From assembly GCF_000026545.1 (NCBI RefSeq), contig NC_011601.1: 64,000 nucleotides of DNA; one strand, given 5' to 3'. The translations under genes and the position numbers were made by a program. Position 1 is the stretch's first letter; every line of letters begins with the position of its first letter. This document shows, one piece after another, positions 16,792-32,612 of the stretch. The notes under the pieces are model-generated. The model worked only from the letters and a program-made list of their open reading frames with translations. It had not been told where the DNA came from and made no database searches. Source of the stretch: Escherichia coli O127:H6 str. E2348/69 (GTDB lineage: Bacteria > Pseudomonadota > Gammaproteobacteria > Enterobacterales > Enterobacteriaceae).

Positions 16792-17367
16792 ATGCCCCTC
16801 TTACACCTGCTCCGCCAGAATCCGGTGATTGCTGCCGTTAAAGATAATGCCAGCCTGCAACTGGCAATCGACTCTGAATGCCAGTTTATTTCCGTGTTGT
16901 ACGGCAATATCTGCACCATTAGTAATATCGTTAAAAAGATTAAGAACGCCGGGAAATATGCTTTTATTCATGTTGATTTGCTGGAAGGCGCGTCAAATAA
17001 AGAAGTGGTGATTCAGTTTTTGAAACTGGTGACCGAGGCGGACGGAATTATCAGTACCAAAGCCTCAATGCTGAAAGCAGCAAGAGCGGAAGGTTTTTTC
17101 TGTATTCATCGACTGTTTATTGTTGATTCGATTTCGTTTCACAACATTGATAAGCAAGTTGCGCAATCGAATCCGGATTGTATTGAGATCCTGCCAGGCT
17201 GCATGCCTAAAGTGCTGGGCTGGGTGACGGACAAAATCCGCCAACCGCTGATTGCTGGCGGGCTGGTGTGCGATGAAGAAGATGCGCGTAATGCGATTAA
17301 CGCGGGTGTTGTGGCGCTTTCCACCACGAATACTGGGGTCTGGACGTTAGCGAAAAAATTGCTTTGA
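16792..17367 (+). CDS. ygcP: GlpP-family glycerol-3-phosphate-responsive antiterminator homolog
   Basis: 191-aa ORF, length and sequence consistent with the GlpP family; last gene of ygcNOP. Confidence 0.75.
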   Translation: MPLLHLLRQNPVIAAVKDNASLQLAIDSECQFISVLYGNICTISNIVKKIKNAGKYAFIHVDLLEGASNKEVVIQFLKLVTEADGIISTKASMLKAARAEGFFCIHRLFIVDSISFHNIDKQVAQSNPDCIEILPGCMPKVLGWVTDKIRQPLIAGGLVCDEEDARNAINAGVVALSTTNTGVWTLAKKLL

Positions 17368-17402
17368 CGGGATAATCGTAACAAGTTGAATTTGGTGTGA
17401 TT

Positions 17403-17473
17403 TGTAGGCTGCACGCCACATCCGACATCCAGCGCCTGATGCGACGCTTGACGCGTCTTATCAGGCCTACAAG
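17403..17473. repeat. REP/BIME element (two palindromic units)
   Basis: TGTAGGCTGCACGCCACATCCGACA ... GCCTGATGCGACGCTTGACGCGTCTTATCAGGCCTACA at the convergent ygcP/ygcQ junction. Confidence 0.7.
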
Positions 17474-17514: not shown

Positions 17515-18375
17515 TTATTGGCAATCTGCGTGAATGTTTGTCACCAGTGCCTCCAGCACCACTTTCCAGTCATCAATCACGCCAACATCTGCCTGTGAAA
17601 ATACCGCTGCACTGGCGTCATGATTAATCGCCACCACAAACTTGCTATTGCGTACGCCCGCCATTAACGCTGCTGCGCCGGAAGCGCCAACAACAATACA
17701 CACCTCAGGTGCCAGCAGATGTCCGGAAATACCAATCACTTTTTCGGCATCAACGCCACCGTTCATCACTCGTGCCCGACTGTAGCCCACTTCGGCTCCC
17801 ATCTTTTCTGCCAGCATAGCGATTTCCTGGTTATCTGCCTCTCCGCCCTGCCCCACCACCAGCACCCGTCTGGCCTCAGCTAATGGGTCACGGGTAACAT
17901 TTTTCAGGTTTTCTATGCTGATAAGCCAGTCTGGAAGCGCGCCGGGGACAATGTTCAGTTGCTGCATCCCAGAGGGCAACGTGGCGTTTTTATCTGCTCC
18001 CGCCTGACGTGCCAGCGAAAGGCATAGCGGGCGTTTTTCTGTTTGCAGCGTCGCCGTTAGCGCATTTCCCCAGTGGGATTTGCGCACGCTTACGGTTGGA
18101 ATATCTAACGAAGTCACCTGGCAGATGCTTGCACCATGTAAACGCCAGGCCAGCCGGGTCGACAGTTCATCGCCAAACGTTCCCGGCGGAAAGAGAACAA
18201 CGTCCGCAGGCGTTCGTTGCCACTGTTCCACCAGCACATCCAGCACCTGTTCCGCAACCATCGGCTGTGGTTCTATTTGCCAATGTGCCAGGGTACAACC
18301 GCTGAAATCCTGCGCCGCCAGCCAGCTCGCTATTGCGGCATGTTCCTGATTTATTGTCACAATTGCGATATTCAT
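17515..18375 (-). CDS. ygcQ: electron-transfer flavoprotein alpha-subunit-like protein (FixB-like)
   Basis: ORF 17515..18408; ETF-alpha-like sequence; start placed at MNIAIVTINQ (286 aa). Confidence 0.82.
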   Translation of the reverse strand: MNIAIVTINQEHAAIASWLAAQDFSGCTLAHWQIEPQPMVAEQVLDVLVEQWQRTPADVVLFPPGTFGDELSTRLAWRLHGASICQVTSLDIPTVSVRKSHWGNALTATLQTEKRPLCLSLARQAGADKNATLPSGMQQLNIVPGALPDWLISIENLKNVTRDPLAEARRVLVVGQGGEADNQEIAMLAEKMGAEVGYSRARVMNGGVDAEKVIGISGHLLAPEVCIVVGASGAAALMAGVRNSKFVVAINHDASAAVFSQADVGVIDDWKVVLEALVTNIHADCQ

Positions 18376-19151
18376 GGCTGCATCCTTTGGCGTAAATAGT
18401 CCTGCCATAGCTTTTGCGCTTTTTCTGCTACCGTTTGCCCATCAATCAGCGCCGCTCTGCGTCGTTGCTCTGGCCTTGCCAGTTGCAGGCACTGTATCGC
18501 TGGCGCTTCCGCGGCAACAGTTTCGCGGGTAATCTCCGCTTTCCCCGCCGCCATTCGCTGGCGCATTCCCGGTACTGGCAAGGCCACTTCACCACACTGA
18601 CGCACGGCAATCACCGCAGGCAAGCGAACCCGGCAACAGCGTACCCCATGTTCAGTACGCTGTTCGAGGGTGATAAACGGTGCGTCGAGAGTAAAGCGCT
18701 CCACCTGGGTGAAGCAGGGCCAGACCAGCATTTCCGCCAGCAAAAATGGCGTTTGCCCATTCTGCCCTTCGCTGCTTTGGCAGCCAGTAATTATCAGATC
18801 CAGCGGATTCTGGTACTGCCATTCGGCAATATGGCGAGCGACAAATTCCGGCGCAAAGCACAGATCTGCCGCCGTCTCCAGCAATACAGCGTCCTCAAAC
18901 CCAAGAGCCATGAGATAGCGCAGCCAGTGCAACGCCCGTTCATCCCCCATGCTCAACGCGGTTAAAGACATCGGCGTACCGTTTTTTCTCTGCGCCAACA
19001 GCAGCGCGGCGGCAGCCTGTTCATCGGCACCGAGTAAACTTCGCAGAAGCGAAACATCCGGTCCGATATTACCCTGAGCCGCCGCCTGCCACTCTTTTTC
19101 CGCCAGCATTCCGGCATCCGGTTCGGCTTTAAACGCTAACAGAATGTTCAT
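18372..19151 (-). CDS. ygcR: electron-transfer flavoprotein beta-subunit-like protein (FixA-like)
   Basis: ORF 18372..19157; ETF-beta-like; 4-bp overlap with ygcQ start suggests translational coupling. Confidence 0.82.
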   Translation of the reverse strand: MNILLAFKAEPDAGMLAEKEWQAAAQGNIGPDVSLLRSLLGADEQAAAALLLAQRKNGTPMSLTALSMGDERALHWLRYLMALGFEDAVLLETAADLCFAPEFVARHIAEWQYQNPLDLIITGCQSSEGQNGQTPFLLAEMLVWPCFTQVERFTLDAPFITLEQRTEHGVRCCRVRLPAVIAVRQCGEVALPVPGMRQRMAAGKAEITRETVAAEAPAIQCLQLARPEQRRRAALIDGQTVAEKAQKLWQDYLRQRMQP

Positions 19152-20466
19152 TCGCACCTCCTACATTTCCCGCCGCCACCAGCGGGAGTGCTTTGGTTTC
19201 TGGTGCCCATAGCCAGGTCACAACAAAACCAACCAACAACACTGCCGCCAGGAGCAATAAGGTGACTTGCATTCCCCACTGCGCCAGCACCCACGGCAGC
19301 AGGCCCGTACTTACTGCCGCGCCCAACCGACTCATGGCGGTGGCAAAACCGACGCCCAGCGAGCGAATGTCAGTAGGAAAACTTTCCGCAGGCAAAATGC
19401 CCACCAGATTACTGACTGCCGAAATGGTGGTGCTGAAGAGAACAAAAAGCAGCAGCGTTAATGAACTGCCGGAAGGCAAACAGGCCATCACTACCAGCGT
19501 TGCCGCCAGCAGCAAAAAACTTCCCAGTAAAAATCTGCGATGTGCCAGCAGGTGCGTCAGAACTAATCCCAGCAGCGCGCCCACAATTAACAACGCATTA
19601 AGCATCAGGCTGGCAGTCAGCGCATCTTCCAGACCAATAGTTTGGGCGATGGTCGGCAGCCAGGTATAAATCACAAACCATGGGATTACGAGGCAGACAA
19701 AGAAGACGCTGTTAAACGCCGTGCGCCGCCAGTAGCGCGAAGAGAACAAGGTTTTGATGTGTTTATGGGTCGCCGTTGCCACTTCATCGCCCAGTAAAAC
19801 ATGCGGGCCAAAATAGCGATGAACGATAGCGTGAGCTTCTGCAAAACGCCCCTGGCGCAGTAGCCAGCGTGGCGATTCCGGCGTGCCCCAACGTAGCAGC
19901 GTAATCAGCAAAGCTGGTAACGCCGCTGATGCCAGCAGCCAGCGCCAGGCCTCCGGGCTTTCGGAAATAAAGTGATGTCCGGCAATACTTGCCAGCACAT
20001 AGCCTACGGTCCACACCACACTGAATGCGCCCAGCAAAATACCGCGATGGCGGCGCGGGGAAAATTCAGCCAGCAAGGTGTGACCGACTGAGTAATCGCC
20101 TCCCAGACCAATGCCGATCAAAATGCGCAATCCAATAAGATGCTCTGGCGTGGTGGCAAAAAATTGCAAGAACGAAGCGAGCGTAATCAGCATAAAACTG
20201 AAGGTGAAGATTTTTTGCCGCCCGATATGGTCGGAGATCCACCCCAAAACCAGGCTGCCAAGAAACAAACCAAGTAACGCCGAGCCGCCGATCATTCCCG
20301 CCATAAACGGCGTCAGTTGCATGGCGGGCGTAAGCTGAATAATGGCGTAACCAATGACGCCGAGAACATAACCGTCGGTCAGGTGTGCGCCGAAAGTGAG
20401 CGCAGCAATGCGGCAGTGAAAACGGTTAAGTGGTAAATCATCCATTCGCACCGGTGAAGTGTTCAT
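19129..20466 (-). CDS. ygcS: MFS transporter
   Basis: ORF 19129..20556; multi-TM hydrophobic sequence; start placed at MNTSPV (445 aa). Confidence 0.8.
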   Translation of the reverse strand: MNTSPVRMDDLPLNRFHCRIAALTFGAHLTDGYVLGVIGYAIIQLTPAMQLTPFMAGMIGGSALLGLFLGSLVLGWISDHIGRQKIFTFSFMLITLASFLQFFATTPEHLIGLRILIGIGLGGDYSVGHTLLAEFSPRRHRGILLGAFSVVWTVGYVLASIAGHHFISESPEAWRWLLASAALPALLITLLRWGTPESPRWLLRQGRFAEAHAIVHRYFGPHVLLGDEVATATHKHIKTLFSSRYWRRTAFNSVFFVCLVIPWFVIYTWLPTIAQTIGLEDALTASLMLNALLIVGALLGLVLTHLLAHRRFLLGSFLLLAATLVVMACLPSGSSLTLLLFVLFSTTISAVSNLVGILPAESFPTDIRSLGVGFATAMSRLGAAVSTGLLPWVLAQWGMQVTLLLLAAVLLVGFVVTWLWAPETKALPLVAAGNVGGANEHSVSV

Positions 20467-20559
20467 CTTTACCCCTTCATTGTCCGGTAATAAGAACGGC
20501 TTCTCGCCTGAGAAGCCGAAAAGGCAACGCCCTGTCATCGAGGAACGCTGCCTCACACA

Positions 20560-22014
20560 TTATTTTTCAATCGGATAGATAGTACCCGTATTCATAATGC
20601 CGTTAGGATCGAACTGTTTTTTCAGACCTTCCAGCAACGTCCACGCGCTGCCGTGTTCCAGTTTGCTCCAGTGAACGCGATGTTTACCGATACCGTGGTG
20701 GTGCACCATCGAACCGCCGAGACGAATGGTTTCTTCGCAGATGATTTTGTTGAGCGGATTGTGGTACTTGTCGATTTCCTCTTCCGGCTTACAGTCAACG
20801 ACGTTGTAGTCGTAGACGAAGTACATGTTGGTGCCGTTCTGATAGCTATGAGAGGAGTGACCGCCCAGCATGGTGATGTCGTCGGCGTGCGGGAACTCGG
20901 TACGAATACGGTTAATAACGCTTTCGTAGATTTCGTGAATGCAGCTCCAGCAGCCGGACACTTCAGTGGTAAAGCCCATGTTGCCGGTTTTGAGGATCTG
21001 CACACGTTCGGCAGCCACTTTATCCGGTCCCCAGTTCAGGTTGTTAAACCAGGTTTCGATCAGCTTGCTGTCCACGCGCTGGCACTGCGGGTAGCACGCC
21101 ACGATTTCAGCAATCCCTTCACCCGTCGCCTTCGCAATGCGAGGGTTACCTTCAGCCATAAAGATCAGCACGCATTTGCCGTCGGCAAAATGGGTGAAGT
21201 GTTGGGTGCCATCTTCAGCATCATACAAACGAGCAATCGACGGACGATACCCTTCCACCATGATTTCACGCAGGATGTTGAAGCCGGTTTTCATGTCTTC
21301 CAGCACATAGCCATAGAAGAGATTGTTTTCCGGCGTAAATTTGAAGATTTTCACTGTGACTTCAGTGATATAGCACAGTGCACCTTCGTTGCCGATGATG
21401 ATATGACGAATGTCCGGGCCAGCCGCGCGACGTGGCACGTTTTTAATGCGTGTGACGGTGCCATCTGCCAGCACCGCTTCCAGACCAACGACCATATCCT
21501 CGATTGCGCCGTAGAGTGTGGAAAACTGCCCGATACTGCGGGTCGCCACCAGGCCGCCCATCTGCGCCAGCGGCTTTGACTGCGGAGAATGCCCCGTGGT
21601 GTAACCTTTTTCACGCAGCGCGTTTTCCAGCACCTCCAGCGGAACGCCACATTGCGCCGTGGCCTGCATATTCTCAATATCAATATTAATGATTTGATTC
21701 ATGGCGGAGCCGTCGAGCACCACCGAGTTTTCCACAACGGTTTCCAGCCCACCTTCGGTGGCGGAAGCACCGGTACGTGGCACACCGTTAATTTTGTGCG
21801 CATTCATAAAATTCAGCACACGGGATACTTGTTCTGTGGAACCGAGTTTTACGACCGCTGCCGGAATTGGCAAAGTATAAATGCCATGAATATCCGGAAA
21901 TTTACGAAAACGGTCAATACTGTTCTTCTTTAATACTGTTTCATCGGTAATTACGCGATCTGCACCAACAATTTCCTTTAGCTGGTCGACAATCGCTACG
22001 CGAGATAAAGACAT
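20560..22014 (-). CDS. ygcU: FAD-linked oxidase (alkyl-DHAP-synthase / GlcD-like)
   Basis: 484-aa ORF with FAD-binding PCMH-type features. Confidence 0.82.
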   Translation of the reverse strand: MSLSRVAIVDQLKEIVGADRVITDETVLKKNSIDRFRKFPDIHGIYTLPIPAAVVKLGSTEQVSRVLNFMNAHKINGVPRTGASATEGGLETVVENSVVLDGSAMNQIINIDIENMQATAQCGVPLEVLENALREKGYTTGHSPQSKPLAQMGGLVATRSIGQFSTLYGAIEDMVVGLEAVLADGTVTRIKNVPRRAAGPDIRHIIIGNEGALCYITEVTVKIFKFTPENNLFYGYVLEDMKTGFNILREIMVEGYRPSIARLYDAEDGTQHFTHFADGKCVLIFMAEGNPRIAKATGEGIAEIVACYPQCQRVDSKLIETWFNNLNWGPDKVAAERVQILKTGNMGFTTEVSGCWSCIHEIYESVINRIRTEFPHADDITMLGGHSSHSYQNGTNMYFVYDYNVVDCKPEEEIDKYHNPLNKIICEETIRLGGSMVHHHGIGKHRVHWSKLEHGSAWTLLEGLKKQFDPNGIMNTGTIYPIEK

Positions 22015-22083
22015 AGTAATTCCTTCCTGATAATAAAAATGGAATAGTTATTAATAAGAGAAAACAGAAACCACCGTTATGAA

Positions 22084-22869
22084 TTAGCGCACTAAATAAC
22101 CGCCATCAACCACTAATAAATGTCCGTTGACATAATTCGATGCCGGACTTGCGAGGAATACGGCTGCACCCATTAAATCCTGAGTATCACCCCAACGGTT
22201 TGCCGGAATATGATCAAGAACACGCTGGTTAGTTTCTGGATTACTACGGGTCGCCAGCGTAATATCGGTTGCATAATAACCAGGAGCAATACCATTCACC
22301 TGAATATTATATTGGCCTAATTCATCGCAATAGGCTTTGGTGAATCCGGCAAGAGCATGTTTAGTGGCAGAATAAGCAGGTGACCATTGACCACCTAAGT
22401 AAGAGAACAATGAACAGATATTAATGATTTTACCGCTTTTCTGCGGGATCATAATTTTTGCCGCTTCGTAGCTTAACTCGAATGCGGCGGTCAGGTTCAC
22501 GTCAATCATCGGGTCCCAGTCGGCACGACCAAAGTCCAGCACCTTATTCAGCTTACAAATACCGGCATTGTTAACCAGAATATCTACGGTACCGAAGCGC
22601 TCACAGCAGGCAGCGATAATCTTCTGCGGCGCGCCTTCTGCGGTGATATCCACCTGCATAAAATCAACTTCGACACCCTGTTTTTCAATCATTTCCTTTG
22701 TTTCGCCGTTATCTTTGACGAAACTAGGAATAAAGACATTTGCGCCAGCTTTGGCCAACGCCATGGCAAATGCCTGGCCTAAACCGCTATTCCCGCCAGT
22801 AACAATTGCTGTTTTACCTTTCAGGGAGAAAAAATCCATTGAGAACGCATTGAGAGATTCGATTGACAT
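22084..22869 (-). CDS. ygcW: short-chain dehydrogenase/reductase (KduD / 2-deoxy-D-gluconate 3-dehydrogenase-like)
   Basis: ORF 22084..22944; Rossmann motif TGGNSGLG and catalytic YSATK; start placed at MSIESL (261 aa) because the upstream in-frame extension overlaps a leader hairpin and A/T run. Confidence 0.82.
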   Translation of the reverse strand: MSIESLNAFSMDFFSLKGKTAIVTGGNSGLGQAFAMALAKAGANVFIPSFVKDNGETKEMIEKQGVEVDFMQVDITAEGAPQKIIAACCERFGTVDILVNNAGICKLNKVLDFGRADWDPMIDVNLTAAFELSYEAAKIMIPQKSGKIINICSLFSYLGGQWSPAYSATKHALAGFTKAYCDELGQYNIQVNGIAPGYYATDITLATRSNPETNQRVLDHIPANRWGDTQDLMGAAVFLASPASNYVNGHLLVVDGGYLVR

Positions 22870-22893
22870 AGTTAGCTCCAATTTCCGTAAGGC

Positions 22894-22940
22894 AAAAAAA
22901 AAGAAAGGTAACTTCCCCCGCGAGAGGGAAGTTACCTTTC
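22894..22940 (-). terminator. intrinsic-terminator-like hairpin + U9 tract in the ygcW leader (candidate antitermination target)
   Basis: Perfect 15-bp stem GAAAGGTAACTTCCC (22903..22917) / GGGAAGTTACCTTTC (22926..22940), 8-nt loop; on the minus-strand transcript it is followed by nine U (A-run 22894..22902), ending 24 nt upstream of the ygcW ATG. Confidence 0.6.
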
Positions 22941-22990
22941 TCATTATCTCTGGTAACTGGAGATAATTTTTAGCATAAGGACATAACTGC

Positions 22991-23012
22991 TAATGTGATC
23001 GTAATCACAGTG
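22991..23012. promoter_or_regulatory. CRP binding site (consensus TGTGA-N6-TCACA) in ygcW/yqcE divergent promoter region
   Basis: TGTGATCGTAATCACA at 22994..23009 matches both CRP half-sites perfectly; a further TGTGA half-site follows immediately. Confidence 0.55.
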
Positions 23013-23115
23013 TGATGTTCGTATTGTCAAATAATTTAAAAAAGCAGAAGCGTGATTACTCTCACACAACACCTCTGCTTTCCATGTTATTTCTTATTGC
23101 AATTACTAGAGACCT

Positions 23116-23162
23116 GAGAAAAGTAATCCACCTGAAAGGGCGGCTTACTTTTCTCTTTTTTT
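23116..23162 (+). terminator. hairpin + U7 tract in the yqcE leader (terminator/attenuator-like)
   Basis: Perfect 11-bp stem GAGAAAAGTAA (23116..23126) / TTACTTTTCTC (23145..23155), 18-nt loop, then TTTTTTT (23156..23162), ending 24 nt upstream of the yqcE ATG. Confidence 0.45.
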
Positions 23163-23186
23163 GTCTATTACAAATGGGAATACGAT

Positions 23187-24464
23187 ATGCAACACAACTC
23201 ATATCGCCGTTGGATAACCCTCGCGATAATTAGTTTTAGCGGCGGCGTTAGTTTCGACCTGGCTTATTTACGTTATATTTATCAAATTCCCATGGCAAAA
23301 TTTATGGGATTCAGCAATACCGAGATAGGTTTAATAATGAGTACCTTTGGTATTGCGGCCATTATTTTCTATGCCCCTAGCGGCGTTATTGCCGATAAAT
23401 TTTCACATCGCAAAATGATTACTTCCGCGATGATCATTACCGGATTACTGGGTCTGTTAATGGCAACATATCCACCGCTGTGGGTAATGCTCTGTATTCA
23501 GGTCGCCTTTGCGATAACGACGATTTTAATGCTGTGGTCGGTGTCGATTAAAGCCGCATCGTTGCTGGGCGATCATAGCGAGCAAGGGAAAATTATGGGC
23601 TGGATGGAAGGGCTGCGCGGCGTCGGTGTAATGTCGCTGGCGGTGTTTACCATGTGGGTCTTTTCTCGCTTTGCACCGGATGACAGCGCCAGCCTGAAAA
23701 CGGTCATTATTATCTATAGTGTGGTTTACATTCTGCTGGGCATTTTGTGTTGGTTTTTTGTTAGCGATAACAACAATCTGCGCAGTGCCAATAACGAAGA
23801 AAAACAGTCATTCCAGCTTAGCGACATCCTGGCCGTTTTGCGCATCAGCACCACCTGGTATTGCAGCATGGTGATTTTTGGTGTCTTCACCATCTACGCC
23901 ATTCTGAGTTACTCCACCAACTATCTGACCGAAATGTACGGCATGTCGTTGGTGGCGGCGAGCTACATGGGGATTGTGATCAACAAAATCTTCCGCGCGC
24001 TGTGCGGCCCACTTGGCGGCATTATCACCACCTACAGTAAAGTGAAATCCCCTACCCGCGTGGTCCAAATCCTTTCCATCATCGGTTTGCTGGCGTTGAC
24101 AGCCCTGCTCGTCACGAACTCTAACCCGCAATCGGTCGCGATGGGGATTGGCCTGATTTTATTACTGGGATTCACCTGTTACGCCTCACGCGGGCTGTAC
24201 TGGGCCTGCCCTGGCGAAGCGAGAACACCGTCTTACATTATGGGCACCACGGTAGGTATTTGTTCGGTGATTGGATTTCTGCCGGATGTCTTCGTTTACC
24301 CGATTATCGGCTACTGGCAAGACACCCTGCCCGCTGCAGAAGCCTACCGCAACATGTGGCTAATGGGCATGGCGGCGCTTGGCATGGTGATCATCTTTAC
24401 CTTTTTGCTGTTCCAAAAAATTCGTACTGCTGATAGCGCCCCCGCAATGGCTAGCAGCAAGTAA
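23187..24464 (+). CDS. yqcE: MFS transporter
   Basis: 425-aa ORF, 12-TM-type hydrophobic profile. Confidence 0.82.
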   Translation: MQHNSYRRWITLAIISFSGGVSFDLAYLRYIYQIPMAKFMGFSNTEIGLIMSTFGIAAIIFYAPSGVIADKFSHRKMITSAMIITGLLGLLMATYPPLWVMLCIQVAFAITTILMLWSVSIKAASLLGDHSEQGKIMGWMEGLRGVGVMSLAVFTMWVFSRFAPDDSASLKTVIIIYSVVYILLGILCWFFVSDNNNLRSANNEEKQSFQLSDILAVLRISTTWYCSMVIFGVFTIYAILSYSTNYLTEMYGMSLVAASYMGIVINKIFRALCGPLGGIITTYSKVKSPTRVVQILSIIGLLALTALLVTNSNPQSVAMGIGLILLLGFTCYASRGLYWACPGEARTPSYIMGTTVGICSVIGFLPDVFVYPIIGYWQDTLPAAEAYRNMWLMGMAALGMVIIFTFLLFQKIRTADSAPAMASSK

Positions 24465-24490
24465 GCCAGGAAAATTACAGGAGAAAAATC

Positions 24491-25969
24491 ATGTCGAAAA
24501 AATACATCATAGGGATTGATGGCGGAAGTCAGAGCACAAAAGTGGTGATGTACGATCTGGAAGGTAATGTGGTTTGCGAAGGCAAAGGCTTATTGCAGCC
24601 GATGCACACGCCAGATGCCGATACCGCAGAACATCCTGACGACGATTTATGGGCATCACTATGTTTTGCCAGTCACGATTTGATGAGCCAGTTTGCCGGA
24701 AATAAAGAAGATATTGTCGGCATTGGCCTGGGCTCAATCCGTTGCTGCCGTGCGTTATTGAAAGCCGATGGTACGCCAGCCGCGCCGTTGATTAGCTGGC
24801 AGGATGCACGCGTTACACGCCCTTACGAACACACTAATCCTGACGTGGCCTATGTCACCTCTTTTTCGGGTTATCTGACACATCGCTTAACCGGCGAGTT
24901 TAAAGACAATATCGCCAACTATTTTGGTCAGTGGCCGGTGGATTATAAGAGCTGGGCATGGAGCGAAAATGCCGCGGTAATGGAAAAGTTTAATATCCCC
25001 CGCCAGATGCTTTTTGACGTGCAAATGCCAGGCACTGTTCTTGGGCATATCACACCACAAGCTGCGCTGGCGACACATTTCCCGGCTGGGCTGCCGGTTG
25101 TTTGTACCACCAGTGATAAACCGGTAGAAGCTCTGGGAGCCGGGTTACTGGATGATGAAACGGCGGTAATTTCTCTTGGCACCTACATCGCGTTGATGAT
25201 GAACGGCAAAGCACTGCCGAAAGATCCGGTCGCGTACTGGCCGATTATGTCTTCTATTCCGCAAACATTGCTGTATGAAGGTTACGGTATTCGCAAAGGC
25301 ATGTGGACGGTGAGCTGGCTGCGCGACATGTTAGGCGAGTCGTTAATTCAGGATGCCAAAGCACAGGATCTTTCACCGGAAGATTTGCTCAACAAAAAAG
25401 CGTCTTGCGTGCCACCTGGTTGTAATGGGCTGATGACGGTGCTGGACTGGCTGACCAATCCGTGGGAACCGTACAAACGCGGAATTATGATCGGCTTTGA
25501 TTCCAGCATGGATTACGCATGGATATATCGTTCGATACTGGAAAGCGTGGCGCTGACGCTGAAGAACAATTACGACAATATGTGTAATGAAATGAATCAC
25601 TTTGCAAAGCATGTGATCATTACTGGCGGCGGTTCGAACAGCGATCTGTTTATGCAGATTTTTGCCGACGTGTTCAACCTTCCGGCACGCCGTAACGCCA
25701 TTAATGGTTGTGCAAGTCTGGGGGCAGCGATCAATACGGCGGTAGGTCTGGGGCTATACCCGGATTACGCAACGGCTGTCGACAAAATGGTTCGCGTGAA
25801 AGATATCTTTATGCCTGTTGAGAGCAACGCCAAACGCTACGACGCGATGAATAAAGGCATTTTCAAAGACCTAACCAAACACACTGATGTGATCCTGAAA
25901 AAATCGTATGAAGTGATGCATGGGGAATTGGGGAATGCGGATTCGATCCAGAGCTGGTCGAATGCGTAA
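24491..25969 (+). CDS. ygcE: FGGY-family carbohydrate kinase
   Basis: 492-aa ORF with N-terminal IGIDGGSQSTK motif typical of FGGY sugar kinases. Confidence 0.85.
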   Translation: MSKKYIIGIDGGSQSTKVVMYDLEGNVVCEGKGLLQPMHTPDADTAEHPDDDLWASLCFASHDLMSQFAGNKEDIVGIGLGSIRCCRALLKADGTPAAPLISWQDARVTRPYEHTNPDVAYVTSFSGYLTHRLTGEFKDNIANYFGQWPVDYKSWAWSENAAVMEKFNIPRQMLFDVQMPGTVLGHITPQAALATHFPAGLPVVCTTSDKPVEALGAGLLDDETAVISLGTYIALMMNGKALPKDPVAYWPIMSSIPQTLLYEGYGIRKGMWTVSWLRDMLGESLIQDAKAQDLSPEDLLNKKASCVPPGCNGLMTVLDWLTNPWEPYKRGIMIGFDSSMDYAWIYRSILESVALTLKNNYDNMCNEMNHFAKHVIITGGGSNSDLFMQIFADVFNLPARRNAINGCASLGAAINTAVGLGLYPDYATAVDKMVRVKDIFMPVESNAKRYDAMNKGIFKDLTKHTDVILKKSYEVMHGELGNADSIQSWSNA

Positions 25970-26133: not shown

Positions 26134-27054
26134 ATGAGCGCAAGAGTATGGGTACTCGGTGATGCGGTTGTTGATTTATTACCCGAAAGCCAGGGGAGAC
26201 TACTACAGTGTCCTGGCGGGGCGCCTGCTAATGTTGCAGTCGGTATCGCAAGGCTGGGGGGGAAAAGTGCCTTTATTGGCAAAGTTGGCGATGATCCTTT
26301 CGGTCGCTTTATGTATCAGACACTGAGTACAGAAAATGTTGATACACGTTATATGTCTCTTGATCCTCAACAACGCACCTCAATTGTGGCTGTAGGACTT
26401 GATGAGCAAGGAGAAAGAAACTTTACCTTTATGGTACGCCCAAGTGCCGATCTTTTTTTACAACCTGATGACCTTCCTACATTTGGGCCGGGTGAATGGC
26501 TCCATCTTTGTTCCATTGCGCTCAGTGCAGAACCTTCCCGAAGTACCGCATTTCTGGCTATGGAGAAAATACGTCAGGCTGGCGGAAACATCAGTTTTGA
26601 TCCCAATATCCGCAGCGATCTCTGGCAGAGTGAAGCGCTATTAAGAAAATACCTTGATCGCGCGCTTTCGCTGGCGAATATCGCTAAATTGTCCGAAGAA
26701 GAGTTGCTATTCATCAGTGGCGAAAGCCAGGTTCAGCAAGGCGCATATTCATTAGTACAACGTTATTCGTTGACTTTATTGCTTATCACACAAGGAAAAA
26801 ATGGCGTACTTGTGTATTTTCAGGGGCAGTTTATCCACTATCCCGCCAAACCTGTTTCTGTCGTCGATACGACCGGGGCAGGAGATGCTTTTGTCGCTGG
26901 ATTACTTGCAGGTCTGGCTGATTCTGGAATACCAACAAATACCAGACAGCTTGAACGAATCATTGCACAAGCTCAGATTTGTGGTGCTCTGGCGACCACG
27001 GCTAAAGGCGCGATGACCGCCTTACCCCGACAACACGATCTCCCTTCACAATAG
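26134..27054 (+). CDS. scrK: fructokinase (ROK/PfkB ribokinase-family)
   Basis: 306-aa ORF with GGAPANVA and C-terminal DTTGAGDAF motifs; first gene of a scr-type cluster. Confidence 0.85.
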   Translation: MSARVWVLGDAVVDLLPESQGRLLQCPGGAPANVAVGIARLGGKSAFIGKVGDDPFGRFMYQTLSTENVDTRYMSLDPQQRTSIVAVGLDEQGERNFTFMVRPSADLFLQPDDLPTFGPGEWLHLCSIALSAEPSRSTAFLAMEKIRQAGGNISFDPNIRSDLWQSEALLRKYLDRALSLANIAKLSEEELLFISGESQVQQGAYSLVQRYSLTLLLITQGKNGVLVYFQGQFIHYPAKPVSVVDTTGAGDAFVAGLLAGLADSGIPTNTRQLERIIAQAQICGALATTAKGAMTALPRQHDLPSQ

Positions 27055-27105
27055 TGATCCTGCTGTTGTATCTGTAACCCGATTTGTCGTGCCTGTCACA
27101 TTTAC

Positions 27106-27177
27106 TAAATCGGTTTAGCGAAAATAATTGCTCTGGCTAAAAAGTCAGCTTTATTATCAACACCTAAACCGGTTTAG
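27106..27177. promoter_or_regulatory. two putative ScrR operators in scrY promoter region
   Basis: CTAAATCGGTTTAG (27106..27119, near-palindrome) and CTAAACCGGTTTAG (27164..27177, perfect 14-bp palindrome), 45-115 bp upstream of scrY. Confidence 0.55.
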
Positions 27178-27197
27178 CATTTTAGCAATTTTTATAA

Positions 27198-28739
<1,542 letters not shown>

Positions 28740-28747
28740 TACCAGAC

Positions 28748-28770
28748 AGCCTCACGGATGTGAGGCTTTT
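28748..28770 (+). terminator. weak hairpin/partial terminator between scrY and scrA
   Basis: AGCCTCAC-GGAT-GTGAGGCT followed by only TTT; may attenuate rather than terminate. Confidence 0.3.
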
Positions 28771-28799
28771 ACTGAAATAACAATGAATTAGAGGGTTAT

Positions 28800-30170
28800 A
28801 TGGATTTCGATAAAATCGCCCAATCGTTGCTTCCTTTATTAGGTGGTAAGGAGAACATCGCCAGTGCAGCACATTGCGCCACTCGCCTACGGCTGGTACT
28901 GGTTGACGACACACTTGCCGATCAACATGCCATTGGCCAGATTGATGGAGTGAAAGGTTGTTTTCGTAATTCAGGGCAAATGCAAATCATCTTTGGCACC
29001 GGCGTGGTTAATAAAGTCTATGCTGCCTTTATTCAGGTTGCAGGTATTAGCGAATCCAGTAAAGCAGATACCGCTCGACTCGCCGCTCAAAAACTCAATC
29101 CTTTTCAGCGAATAGCACGGCTACTTTCTAATATTTTTGTCCCCATCATTCCAGCCATTGTTGCTTCTGGTTTATTAATGGGGCTCCTGGGAATGGTGAA
29201 AACATATGGCTGGGTGAATGCCGATAATGCGATTTATATCCTGCTGGATATGTGCAGTTCAGCCGCATTTATTATTCTCCCCATCCTTATTGGCTTTACT
29301 GCTGCTCGTGAATTTGGTGGAAATCCTTATCTTGGCGCGACATTAGGAGGGATTCTGACTCACCCGGCACTCACAAATGCCTGGGGCGTTGCTGCGGGAT
29401 TTCAGACAATGAACTTCTTCGGTTTTGAAATCGCCATGATTGGCTATCAGGGAACGGTTTTCCCCGTGCTTCTGGCAGTATGGTTTATGAGCATAGTGGA
29501 AAAACAGTTACGCAGGTTTATCCCTGATGCTCTGGATCTCATTCTGACGCCATTTCTGACTGTCGTCATTTCTGGCTTTATCGCTCTTTTGATTATTGGT
29601 CCGGCAGGACGAGCGTTAGGTGACGGTATCTCTTTCGTTCTCAGCACGCTGATTGCACACGCAGGCTGGTTAGCAGGGTTGTTATTCGGCGGGCTATATT
29701 CAGCGATTGTTATTACGGGTATTCATCATAGCTTCCACGCAATTGAAGCAGGACTTTTAGGTAACCCTGCAATCGGTGTTAATTTCCTGCTGCCTATTTG
29801 GGCAATGGCAAACGTTGCGCAAGGAGGTGCATGTCTGGCGGTATGGTTTAAAACCAAAGATACAAAAATTAAAGCAATCACCCTACCCTCGGCCTTTTCC
29901 GCAATGTTAGGGATTACTGAAGCCGCTATTTTTGGTATCAACCTTCGTTTTGTTAAACCTTTTATTGCGGCCTTAATTGGTGGCGCTGCCGGCGGTGCCT
30001 GGGTTGTCTCTGTTCACGTTTATATGACTGCCGTTGGTCTGACCGCAATACCCGGCATGGCAATCGTTCAGCCAACATCGTTGGTTAATTATATTATTGG
30101 AATGGTGATTGCTTTCGCTGTCGCTTTTAGCCTCTCTTTATTACTCAAATACAAAACGGACGAGGAGTAA
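28800..30170 (+). CDS. scrA: PTS sucrose-specific EIIBC component
   Basis: 456-aa ORF; N-terminal EIIB Cys motif (ASAAHCATRLR) followed by multi-TM EIIC domain. Confidence 0.88.
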   Translation: MDFDKIAQSLLPLLGGKENIASAAHCATRLRLVLVDDTLADQHAIGQIDGVKGCFRNSGQMQIIFGTGVVNKVYAAFIQVAGISESSKADTARLAAQKLNPFQRIARLLSNIFVPIIPAIVASGLLMGLLGMVKTYGWVNADNAIYILLDMCSSAAFIILPILIGFTAAREFGGNPYLGATLGGILTHPALTNAWGVAAGFQTMNFFGFEIAMIGYQGTVFPVLLAVWFMSIVEKQLRRFIPDALDLILTPFLTVVISGFIALLIIGPAGRALGDGISFVLSTLIAHAGWLAGLLFGGLYSAIVITGIHHSFHAIEAGLLGNPAIGVNFLLPIWAMANVAQGGACLAVWFKTKDTKIKAITLPSAFSAMLGITEAAIFGINLRFVKPFIAALIGGAAGGAWVVSVHVYMTAVGLTAIPGMAIVQPTSLVNYIIGMVIAFAVAFSLSLLLKYKTDEE

Positions 30171-31579
30171 TGTCGATGCCTTCACAAATGCCCGCGATTT
30201 TACAGGCAGTGATGAAAGGTCAGTCCAAAGCACTGGCAGATGCCCACTATCCTTGTTGGCATCTCGCTCCAGTCACCGGACTAATGAACGATCCAAATGG
30301 CTTTTGTTGGTCTGGAGGCCGCTATCATCTGTTTTATCAATGGAATCCACTGGCTTGTGATCATAAGTACAAATGTTGGGGGCACTGGAGTTCGACGGAT
30401 TTATTGCACTGGCAGCATGAACCATTAGCGCTAATGCCCGATAAAGAGTACGACCGTAATGGTTGTTACTCAGGAAGCGCGGTTAATAATCAGGGCGTTC
30501 TCACACTTTGCTATACCGGTAATGTTAAGTTTGATGATGGCAGCAGAACGGCATGGCAATGCCTGGCCACCGAAAATAACCAGGGCGGGTTTGATAAACT
30601 AGGCCCTGTCATACCGTTACCTGATGGTTACACCGGACATGTTCGTGATCCAAAAGTCTGGAAGCACAACAGCCAATGGTACATGGTGCTTGGCGCGCAA
30701 GATAAAGAGAAACGGGGGAAAGTGCTGCTGTATTCCTCTGTCGATCTCTATACCTGGTCTTTTCATGGAGAAATTGCTGGTAACGGTCTGAATGAAATAG
30801 ATAACGCAGGATACATGTGGGAATGTCCTGATCTTTTCGCCCTTGATGGTGAATACATTCTCCTCTGTTGCCCCCAGGGAATGGTGCGCGAACATGAGCG
30901 CTATCTGAATACTTATCCCTGCGCCTGGCTACATGGACAGTTTGATTACGAGACAGGCAAATTTACGCATGGCGCTTTCTCAGAGCTGGATGCGGGATTT
31001 GAATTCTATGCACCACAGACGATGGAAGCCCCGGACGGGCGACGATTGCTGGTCGGCTGGATGGGGGTTCCTGATGGCGAAGAGATGTTGCAGCCAACCA
31101 GAAAGCATCATTGGCAGCATCAAATGACCTGTTTTCGCGAACTCTCATTCCAGAAGGGAAAATTGTTTCAGATGCCAATCAGGGAACTCGCGCAACTGCG
31201 TGAAGCTGAACACTTCTGGCAAGGAAAAGCGGATCATGCGCCGCATGTCGAAATTGAACGCCTGGAAATGGACATCATTCCGTCGGGTGAGCTGTATCTG
31301 AATTTTGGCAATGCGCTGGCACTGCATCTTAATGACGATGGTATTCAACTACAGAGGAGAAGCCTTGCAGGGCAAGAGAAACTAACTCGTTACTGGCGAG
31401 GAAGCGTAACGTCACTGAAGATTCTCTGTGACAGTTCCAGCGTAGAGATATTCATCAATAATGGTGAAGGTGTAATGAGTAATCGTTATTTTCCCCATCA
31501 TCCAGCTTCGCTGATATTACAGGGTGAGTCTGACGTCACGTTACGCTACTGGTCGCTACGCGCCTGCATGGTAGAATGA
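30170..31579 (+). CDS. scrB: sucrose-6-phosphate hydrolase (GH32 invertase)
   Basis: 469-aa ORF with GH32 signature MNDPNG and downstream W(M)ECPD; start codon choice near 30170 uncertain. Confidence 0.88.
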
Positions 31580-31604
31580 GGGTTTTGAATTACGGATCCT
31601 CGTC

Positions 31605-32612
31605 GTGAGAAAAACCAAACGCGTTACTATTAAAGACATTGCTGAACTGGCGGGAGTGTCGAAAGCAACCGCCAGTCTGGTTCTCAATGGTCGTGGCAAA
31701 GAGTTACGTGTTGCGCAGGAAACGCGTGAGCGTGTGCTGAGTATTGCCCAACAGCAGCATTATCAGCCCAGCATTCATGCCCGCTCATTACGGGACAACC
31801 GCAGTCATACCATTGGTCTCGTCGTTCCTGAAATCACTAACTACGGATTTGCAGTATTTTCCCATGAACTGGAAACATTGTGTCGGGAAGCGGGCGTCCA
31901 GCTCCTCATATCCTGTACTGATGAAAATCCTTCACAGGAAACAATGGTGGTGAACAATATGATTGCCCGCCAGGTTGATGGGTTAATCGTCGCATCCAGT
32001 ATGCTGCATGATAATGACTATCAAAAACTTAGCGAGCAATTACCTGTTGTGTTGTTCGATCGCCACATGAACGGCAGTACATTGCCATTGGTCATTACTG
32101 ACTCTGTTTCTCCCACCGCCGCTCTGGTGGCAGATATTGCACGGAGTCACCCGGATGAATTCTATTTTCTGGGCGGACAACCCCGTTTGTCACCGACTCG
32201 CGATCGACTGGAAGGATTTACACAAGGCTTGCAGCAAGCCGGAGTAACGCTACAACCTGAATGGATTATTCACGGTAATTATCATCCGAGCTCAGGCTAT
32301 GAAATGTTTGCCGCGCTATGCGCTCGTTTAGGACGTCCCCCTAAAGCCTTATTCACTGCCGCTTGTGGATTACTGGAAGGCGTTCTGCGCTATATGAGCC
32401 AATATAATTTACTCGACAGTAAAATACACCTGGCGAGTTTTGATGATCATTACTTGTATGATTCACTTTCGGTAAGAATCGACACAATACAACAGGATAA
32501 TCGCCAACTTGCTTTTCACTGCTTTGAACTTATTTCGCAACTGATTGAAGGTGAAACGCCATCCCCATTACAGCGTTATCTTCCTGCCAGTCTACAAAAA
32601 CGCTACCGATAA
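31605..32612 (+). CDS. scrR: LacI-family transcriptional repressor of the sucrose regulon
   Basis: 335-aa ORF (GTG start) with N-terminal [26 protein letters not shown] and periplasmic-binding-protein-like effector domain. Confidence 0.85.

Follow-up and report, generated by a model that had tools for sequence, protein, structure and literature searches.

In the 64-kb stretch of E. coli DNA analyzed here (the window), we found that the hairpin in front of ygcW is likely the terminator half of a protein-dependent, GlpP-type attenuator, one of a pair controlling the divergent ygcWUSRQ and yqcE-ygcE operons and relieved by YgcP. Such a circuit for the ygc operons, already suggested in the initial annotation and borne out in each part that could be checked, is strongly inferred here, not demonstrated. 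The initial annotation held that the cluster encodes a GlpP-family protein, and YgcP does match PF04309 (G3P_antiterm) over its full length (model positions 1 to 173 of 173, E = 2.7e-62); it also matches Listeria GlpP (PDB 3KTS) with an E value of 2e-27. The idea of a GlpP homolog in E. coli is not new, since PGAP already names YgcP by its family ("glycerol-3-phosphate responsive antiterminator"). In B. subtilis, GlpP together with glycerol-3-phosphate relieves the leader terminators of glpD, glpFK, and glpTQ (PMC9604022, PMC10573289).

On the minus strand, the ygcW leader carries the hairpin arms GAAAGGUAACUUCCC (22940-22926) and GGGAAGUUACCUUUC (22917-22903), which enclose the loop UCUCGCGG (22925-22918) and are followed by a U9 tract; a 24-nt spacer containing GGAG (22879-22876) separates this tract from the ygcW ATG (22869-22867). 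The 15-bp perfect stem, 8-nt loop, U9 tract, and 24-nt distance to the ATG described in the initial annotation were all correct on rereading, in coordinates as well as in counts. Its statement that no codirectional gene lies upstream of the hairpin was also borne out, the neighboring gene yqcE being divergent. When folded with RNAfold, the hairpin comprised 19 pairs around a 4-nt loop (dG, −31.0 kcal/mol; z, −6.18), and none of 200 dinucleotide shuffles was as stable. Across an 11-kb scan, it was the terminator-like site with the longest stem (19 pairs, 8 of them G-C). The hairpin and its U9 tract are far beyond chance, and of 5426 complete E. coli genomes, 5067 contained the region. Read on the plus strand, with A9 ahead and CAUUAUCUCU behind, the hairpin scored weakly, and we rejected this reading as a mirror image of the first.

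An open reading frame (22084-22944) that is in frame with ygcW has its AUG within the element and reads across the hairpin, an arrangement that would suit ribosome-mediated attenuation by a leader peptide. We consider this reading extremely improbable: in most orthologous leaders, AAGAG, CCGAG, or UAGGAG stands in place of the AUG (..AUGAGAAAG..); no Shine-Dalgarno sequence precedes the AUG at 22944; and no conserved peptide was found. As an upstream start that would add 25 codons through the hairpin to the ygcW frame, the same AUG is unconserved in other genera and most likely meaningless. Separately, we observed that CUCCA (22959-22963, minus strand), just 5′ of AGUUACC, is complementary to UGGAG in the Shine-Dalgarno region of ygcW (22876-22880), and pairing of the two would enclose the terminator. 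Lelliottia has a compensating pair (UCCACA/UGUGGA), and the counterpart is missing in Buttiauxella and Leminorella; this pairing may be a lineage-specific translational layer, or chance.

Table 1. Features of the ygcW-yqcE region and of the leaders compared with it. Positions are those of the window unless a K-12 position or another locus is given.
Feature	Position	Strand	Basis or remark
ygcP, GlpP-family (PF04309) putative antiterminator	16792..17367	+	Pfam E 2.7e-62
ygcWUSRQ operon, behind the first leader: SDR, FAD oxidase, MFS transporter, ETF beta and alpha subunits	17515..22869	-	
Whole ygcW leader element (antiterminator, terminator, and U run)	22891..22966	-	Covariance-model match: R2 73.2 bits, E 7.7e-14; R1 78.1 bits
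U9 tract, ygcW leader	22894..22902	-	Direct reading of the sequence
Terminator hairpin, ygcW leader	22903..22942	-	15-bp perfect core 22940-22903; 19 pairs 22942-22901 by MFE
Antiterminator 3′ strand GGUAACU, the switch segment, also part of the terminator 5′ arm	22930..22936	-	
Purine-rich antiterminator loop AGAGAUAAUGAGAAA, NGAG(A)-N4-GAGRAA	22937..22951	-	Conserved
Antiterminator 5′ strand AGUUACC, identical to part of the terminator 3′ arm	22952..22958	-	Pairs 7/7 with GGUAACU 22936-22930
CRP site, palindrome TGTGATCGTAATCACA, midway between both leaders	22994..23009	.	Perfect palindrome
yqcE leader element, paralog of the ygcW leader	23093..23165	+	R2 69.4 bits, E 5.3e-13
yqcE leader parts	AAUUACU 23101-23107; loop 23108-23121; hairpin 23116-23155; U7 23156-23162	+	
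yqcE-ygcE operon, behind the second leader: MFS transporter, FGGY kinase	23187..25969	+	
3′ end before ygcW	K-12 2900311	-	40,640 reads; 38 nt before ygcW ATG; Rho score 0.50; intrinsic-terminator score 15.8 (PMC7815308)
3′ end before yqcE	K-12 2900556	+	1,557 reads; 36 nt before yqcE ATG; Rho score 0.61; intrinsic-terminator score 11.4 (PMC7815308)
Canonical glpF/glpD leaders	L020 10565-10737, 13128-13293; L022 6079-6285, 8559-8720		Priestia, Lysinibacillus

The initial annotation had suggested folding the leader in search of an alternative antiterminator, and a helix that overlaps the terminator and shows compensatory changes was indeed found. In the ygcW leader, this helix is the minimum free energy (MFE) structure of the nascent RNA, at −6.7 kcal/mol. 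The consensus of the element runs (A)GUUACY, 0 or 3 nt, NGAG(A), N3-4, GAGRAA, RGUAACU, a variable distal stem and loop, the 3′ arm, CUUUUCUC, and U7-10. Its GAG and GAG.AA loop columns were invariant in 17 and in 19 sequences, and we propose the purine-rich loop at 22937-22951 as a candidate site of protein recognition. When folded without the 3′ arm, as nascent RNA, 14 of 17 leaders had the antiterminator as their MFE structure (−1.4 to −7.1 kcal/mol), that of yqcE being very weak at −1.4 kcal/mol; the full leaders of this set folded into the terminator (−19.5 to −35.9 kcal/mol). A weak helix with a conserved loop that overlaps a terminator is the classic layout of a protein-stabilized antiterminator.

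Both helices were supported by the alignment. For the terminator, 89% of cells were paired, compared with 54 to 67% in slid controls, and six pairs had changed on both sides. For the antiterminator, 82% of cells paired in the MAFFT alignment (slid controls, 20 to 56%) despite three out-of-register sequences, and 159 of 168 cells paired in the correct register. Five of its seven pairs showed compensatory changes, a count reached by 5 of 500 shuffles. The number of compensatory cells (9, versus 2.2 ± 1.2 in shuffles) and the covariation score were each reached by none of the 500. The informative variants were AGUUACC:GGUAACU, AAUUACU:AGUAAU, GGUUGCU:AGCGAAC, and one G-U wobble; this covariation is carried by few lineages (ygcW type versus yqcE type, and Fodinisporobacter), most helix positions being conserved in sequence. 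The same arms form an inverted repeat in the DNA, AGTTACT-N14-18-AGTAACT, at the predicted transcription start, and could be taken for the operator of a dimeric repressor acting just downstream of the promoter. This we regard as very unlikely, since the spacing varies (14, 15, or 18 nt), breaking helical phasing; Lelliottia pairs AGUUACC with GGUGACU by G-U wobble, which is asymmetric as DNA; and the 3′ half is embedded in the terminator stem. Moreover, no conserved DNA-binding regulator was found in the clusters, a LysR-family neighbor occurring in Pantoea only.

A second, paralogous leader ahead of the divergent yqcE-ygcE operon is what would be expected of a regulon served by one antiterminator, and its presence supports that arrangement. 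On the plus strand, the hairpin GAGAAAAGUAA..UUACUUUUCUC with its U7 tract lies 24 nt ahead of the ATG at 23187 (z of the fold, −3.3). Aligned over ~119 columns, the ygcW and yqcE leaders were identical in 70 of 119 and shared the blocks UUACYAGAGA, UGAGAAARGUAA, and UUACYUUUCU followed by the U run. Within the window, exact matches to both short motifs occurred in just the two leaders, and covariance model R2, built with the E. coli sequences left out, found exactly these two sites, with E values of 7.7e-14 and 5.3e-13. Ahead of ygcNOP, the 77-nt queD-ygcN spacer was without the motif, and neither R1 nor R2 gave a third site in the window; ygcP itself is therefore not under control of the element in E. 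coli. In Vibrio hannami (L009 6868-10579), we observed the ygcP ortholog downstream of the kinase-transporter leader, so that the antiterminator would control its own synthesis there.

In NCBIfam, the FGGY kinase YgcE fell below every cutoff, that for glycerol kinase included; YgcW, YgcU, and YqcE likewise had no above-cutoff assignment, and YgcP had no family at the E limit used. Two further observations concern the surroundings of the cluster. The spacer between the convergent genes ygcP and ygcQ (17384-17467) gave a subthreshold Rfam match to naRNA4 (39.9 bits versus a gathering score of 59.5), which we take to be REP-derived. Directly after ygcE (~26134-32500) lies a sucrose-type island encoding a sugar kinase, a carbohydrate porin, a PTS IIBC component, a sucrose-6-phosphate hydrolase, and a LacI-family regulator, genes that are presumably absent from K-12.

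Across genomes, the covariance model detected 25 copies of the element (24 distinct sequences; E up to 8e-6) in 13 sources, comprising nine genera and four metagenome contigs. Outside E. coli, these were Lelliottia, Buttiauxella, Leminorella, Pantoea, Vibrio, Clostridium, Thalassobacillus, Fodinisporobacter, and the four contigs. Nothing comparable was found elsewhere in the ~260 kb scanned, and weaker matches (≤34 bits) were the reverse strands of the same hairpins. The closest relatives of YgcP, at 52 to 93% identity, belong to Enterobacterales and also to Vibrio, Clostridium, Thalassobacillus, and Fodinisporobacter. All copies sit in SDR/FGGY-kinase/FAD-oxidase clusters in which a YgcP ortholog of that identity range is encoded. 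Every locus reached through YgcP had a common core of SDR, FGGY kinase, and FAD-linked oxidase, joined in some by ETF subunits and by MFS or other transporters. Each copy precedes the first gene of an SDR, kinase, transporter, or FAD-oxidase unit by 20 to 70 nt.

Two paralogous leaders per locus were present in every genus for which both flanks were available. The copies were paired and divergent in Enterobacterales, Vibrio, Pantoea, and Fodinisporobacter; Clostridium had two units in tandem, and Thalassobacillus had one copy. In Clostridium sediminicola (L008 7263-7336, minus strand), we observed that the second copy has its own TATACT −10 element and lies between the kinase and the FAD oxidase/ETF genes; this internal copy splits the cluster into two separately attenuated units on one strand. 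A metagenome scan by motif only, with a chance expectation that we estimate to be well below one, returned four contigs, all with ygc-type genes, and YgcP (73 to 75% identity) was encoded on the three long enough to show it. The loci other than these contigs were all reached through YgcP homologs, so that the test of co-occurrence is a strong one going from protein to RNA and a light one in the reverse direction, from RNA to protein.

This distribution also bears on a riboswitch-like attenuator, in which the GAGA-loop hairpin would bind a small metabolite directly and YgcP would be an unrelated regulator or an enzyme. In its favor are the strong conservation of the loop residues and an antiterminator/terminator arrangement that matches transcriptional riboswitches. 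PF04309 proteins have a TIM-barrel-like solved fold (PDB entries 3KTS and 1VKF), and to our knowledge they lack a classical RNA-binding domain. We nevertheless find this reading quite unlikely. The candidate aptamer would span only ~30 nt, with one 7-bp A-U-rich helix and no further conserved structure. No Rfam riboswitch, leader, or sRNA family matched the intergenic sequence at E values up to 1; apart from naRNA4, the only Rfam match was one to a snoRNA, due to chance. In addition, the element was found only in clusters with YgcP orthologs, in two phyla, and the homolog GlpP is a genetically established antiterminator.

Attenuation relieved by YgcP, the reading we favor, places the terminator within a transcribed leader, as the initial annotation had claimed, and published Term-seq 3′ ends were found at both the ygcW and the yqcE hairpins. 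In that study (Adams 2021; strain MG1655 in LB at an OD of 0.4; PMC7815308), neither end was Rho dependent, both were classed as "orphan," and the column for characterized regulatory elements was empty. These ends show transcription of both leaders in the orientation predicted for them, with a buildup in LB of short RNAs that stop at the hairpins when no inducer is present. K-12 position 2900311 corresponds to window position 22907 (minus strand) and 2900556 to ~23152 (plus strand), both inside the 3′ arms. The ends follow ..GUUACC in the ygcW leader and ..CUUACUUUU in the yqcE leader, 13 and 11 nt before the last U, whereas those of the control terminators ompF and fldA in the same table lie in or just past the U-rich tails. 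As a guess, this offset may reflect exonuclease trimming through the A-U-rich basal stem, or an effect of peak calling.

Transcription probably starts at AGUUACY or a few nucleotides before it, as we infer from promoter positions in other genera. In Clostridium and Thalassobacillus, consensus-like −35 and −10 elements (TTGACA with TATACT, 17 to 18 nt apart) lie just upstream of the element, which puts the start 0 to 8 nt before AGUUACU and the element at or near the RNA 5′ end. In E. coli, class II spacing (−41.5) from the CRP site would set the ygcW RNA start at ~22960, directly on CCAGUUACC; should the conserved YATGYT serve as the −10 element, CRP would lie at an unusual −36.5 for ygcW. The palindrome TGTGATCGTAATCACA, also conserved in Lelliottia and Buttiauxella, was bound by CRP in enterotoxigenic E. 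coli in chromatin immunoprecipitation sequencing (PMC4287617) and in vitro with a Kd of 1.7 nM in Footprint-seq (PMC12871828). A CRP site between the leaders had also been predicted early in the literature, and genomic SELEX detected binding of RpoD holoenzyme and H-NS to the ygcW-yqcE spacer. Beyond the binding shown, we propose that CRP, acting at the palindrome common to both operons, places initiation under catabolite control as well.

The hairpins could instead be constitutive attenuators or the ends of independent small RNAs (for example, Hfq-binding RNAs derived from the 5′ untranslated region [UTR]), or they could damp leaky CRP-driven transcription without any antiterminator. Hfq-binding sRNAs typically have a strong hairpin and a long U tail. 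In LB, the terminated form of the ygcW leader was abundant, with 40,640 reads (PMC7815308). However, such schemes leave unexplained why a covarying upstream AGUUACY competes with the terminator, and likewise the strict placement of the element at 20 to 70 nt and its duplication ahead of both operons; we hold them to be unlikely.

We therefore return to a terminator/antiterminator pair relieved by YgcP, for which the following steps are proposed. The nascent leader would first form a weak antiterminator, in which AGUUACY pairs with RGUAACU around a GAGA-rich loop of 14 to 18 nt. Unaided, this helix (−1 to −7 kcal/mol) would lose to the terminator (−20 to −36 kcal/mol), which reuses RGUAACU. By default, RNA polymerase would stop at the U run ~24 nt ahead of the start codon, as the Term-seq ends in LB support. 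With inducer, YgcP would bind and stabilize the antiterminator, so that the terminator is blocked and the operon transcribed; the strict co-occurrence and the precedent of B. subtilis GlpP point to this step. By analogy with GlpK, which makes glycerol-3-phosphate, the FGGY kinase YgcE probably generates the inducer as its phosphorylated product.

Literature searches with ygcP, ygcW, and the other cluster genes returned no paper on regulation of the cluster beyond surveys of CRP, RpoD, and H-NS binding, and no description of an RNA target of YgcP or of the paired leaders. The ygc attenuator pair is thus apparently undescribed so far. It can account for the two abundant 3′ ends classed as orphans in the published E. 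coli Term-seq data (PMC7815308) and offers a testable model of regulation for ten E. coli y-genes (ygcNOP, ygcQRSUW, yqcE, and ygcE), whose substrate is uncharacterized. Because a leader-reporter fusion should respond to the true inducer, it would be a direct route to the pathway. The covarying helix and GAGA loop point to RNA determinants that PF04309 proteins may read, which the GlpP studies consulted leave undefined for GlpP itself. If correct, the model, taken with the parallel design of canonical glp leaders, would be the first comparative account at the base-pair level of how PF04309 proteins prevent termination. It would also identify in E. coli a protein antiterminator that responds to a ligand and is not of the Bgl type, for a ten-gene cluster of uncharacterized function, and would extend GlpP-type antitermination, so far studied in Bacillus glycerol genes only, to Gram-negative bacteria and to another regulon. 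The compact terminator/antiterminator pair could further serve as a portable expression switch, a use to which glpD has already been put in B. subtilis.

Among known systems, the layout of the ygc leaders resembles that of E. coli bgl and of B. subtilis sac and lic, whose BglG/SacY/LicT antiterminators are CAT-PRD proteins under the control of PTS phosphorylation. There, the protein stabilizes a weak antiterminator (RAT) hairpin that overlaps the terminator 5′ arm, and substrate relieves default termination. The ygc leaders likewise have a weak antiterminator hairpin whose 3′ side overlaps the terminator 5′ arm. In contrast, no gene for a CAT-PRD antiterminator is present among the 17 annotated features of the region, and the RAT sequence and structure are probably unrelated to those of the ygc leaders. 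HutP and TRAP (B. subtilis hut and trp) are ligand-activated RNA-binding proteins that read (U/G)AG triplets, TRAP promoting termination. The conserved single-stranded GAG repeats (NGAG-N5-GAG) beside the terminator in the ygc leaders are reminiscent of those triplet sites; however, the protein folds and oligomeric states differ, and the ygc element has two GAG units only and requires a flanking helix.

The closest likeness is to the B. subtilis GlpP system. In both, a PF04309 regulator is encoded with its regulon, an intrinsic terminator lies in the 5′ leader, related leaders occur on several operons, and genes for an FGGY kinase and an FAD-dependent dehydrogenase belong to the regulon. We compared five canonical glp leaders, a small sample from three species, by eye and by nascent folding, namely the B. 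subtilis glpD 5′ UTR and the glpF and glpD leaders of Priestia megaterium and Lysinibacillus; a Listeria glpP locus (L021) was set aside as having no adjacent glp genes. All five start with AAGUU(A/C)AUA, followed by a segment X, a purine-rich loop of 9 to 14 nt (GAGAUGAGG, GGAGAAUCGGAGA, or UGAGUAACUGAGA), and the complementary segment X′ inside the terminator 5′ arm. The X:X′ hairpin was the nascent-RNA MFE structure in four of the five. The ygc leaders are similar in having a helix around a purine-rich loop that overlaps the terminator 5′ arm, an AGUUA start, and a GAGA..GAGA loop. An AAGUU start with a helix around a GAGA or GGAGA loop may thus be a general RNA signature of GlpP targets.

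The two systems also differ. YgcP is 31% identical to Priestia GlpP, versus 52 to 63% to ygc-type orthologs in Firmicutes. The ygc model gave only 16.4 bits (E = 0.31) on the Priestia glpD leader, below the ordinary terminators of the same loci, and this failure on glp leaders indicates that the RNAs are separate sequence families. Instead of glycerol genes, the ygc leaders precede an SDR/FAD-oxidase/ETF/MFS/kinase cluster of uncharacterized substrate, in gammaproteobacteria and under CRP; since its genes are not those of glycerol metabolism, the inducer is probably not glycerol-3-phosphate. We regard it as an evenly balanced proposition that the two ygc leaders form an undescribed RNA family, cognate to a YgcP subfamily of Firmicutes and gammaproteobacteria that senses the product of YgcE and not glycerol-3-phosphate. 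Taking the likenesses and differences together, we would place the ygc system beside glp as a sister regulon, with its own protein clade, its own RNA family, and probably its own ligand.
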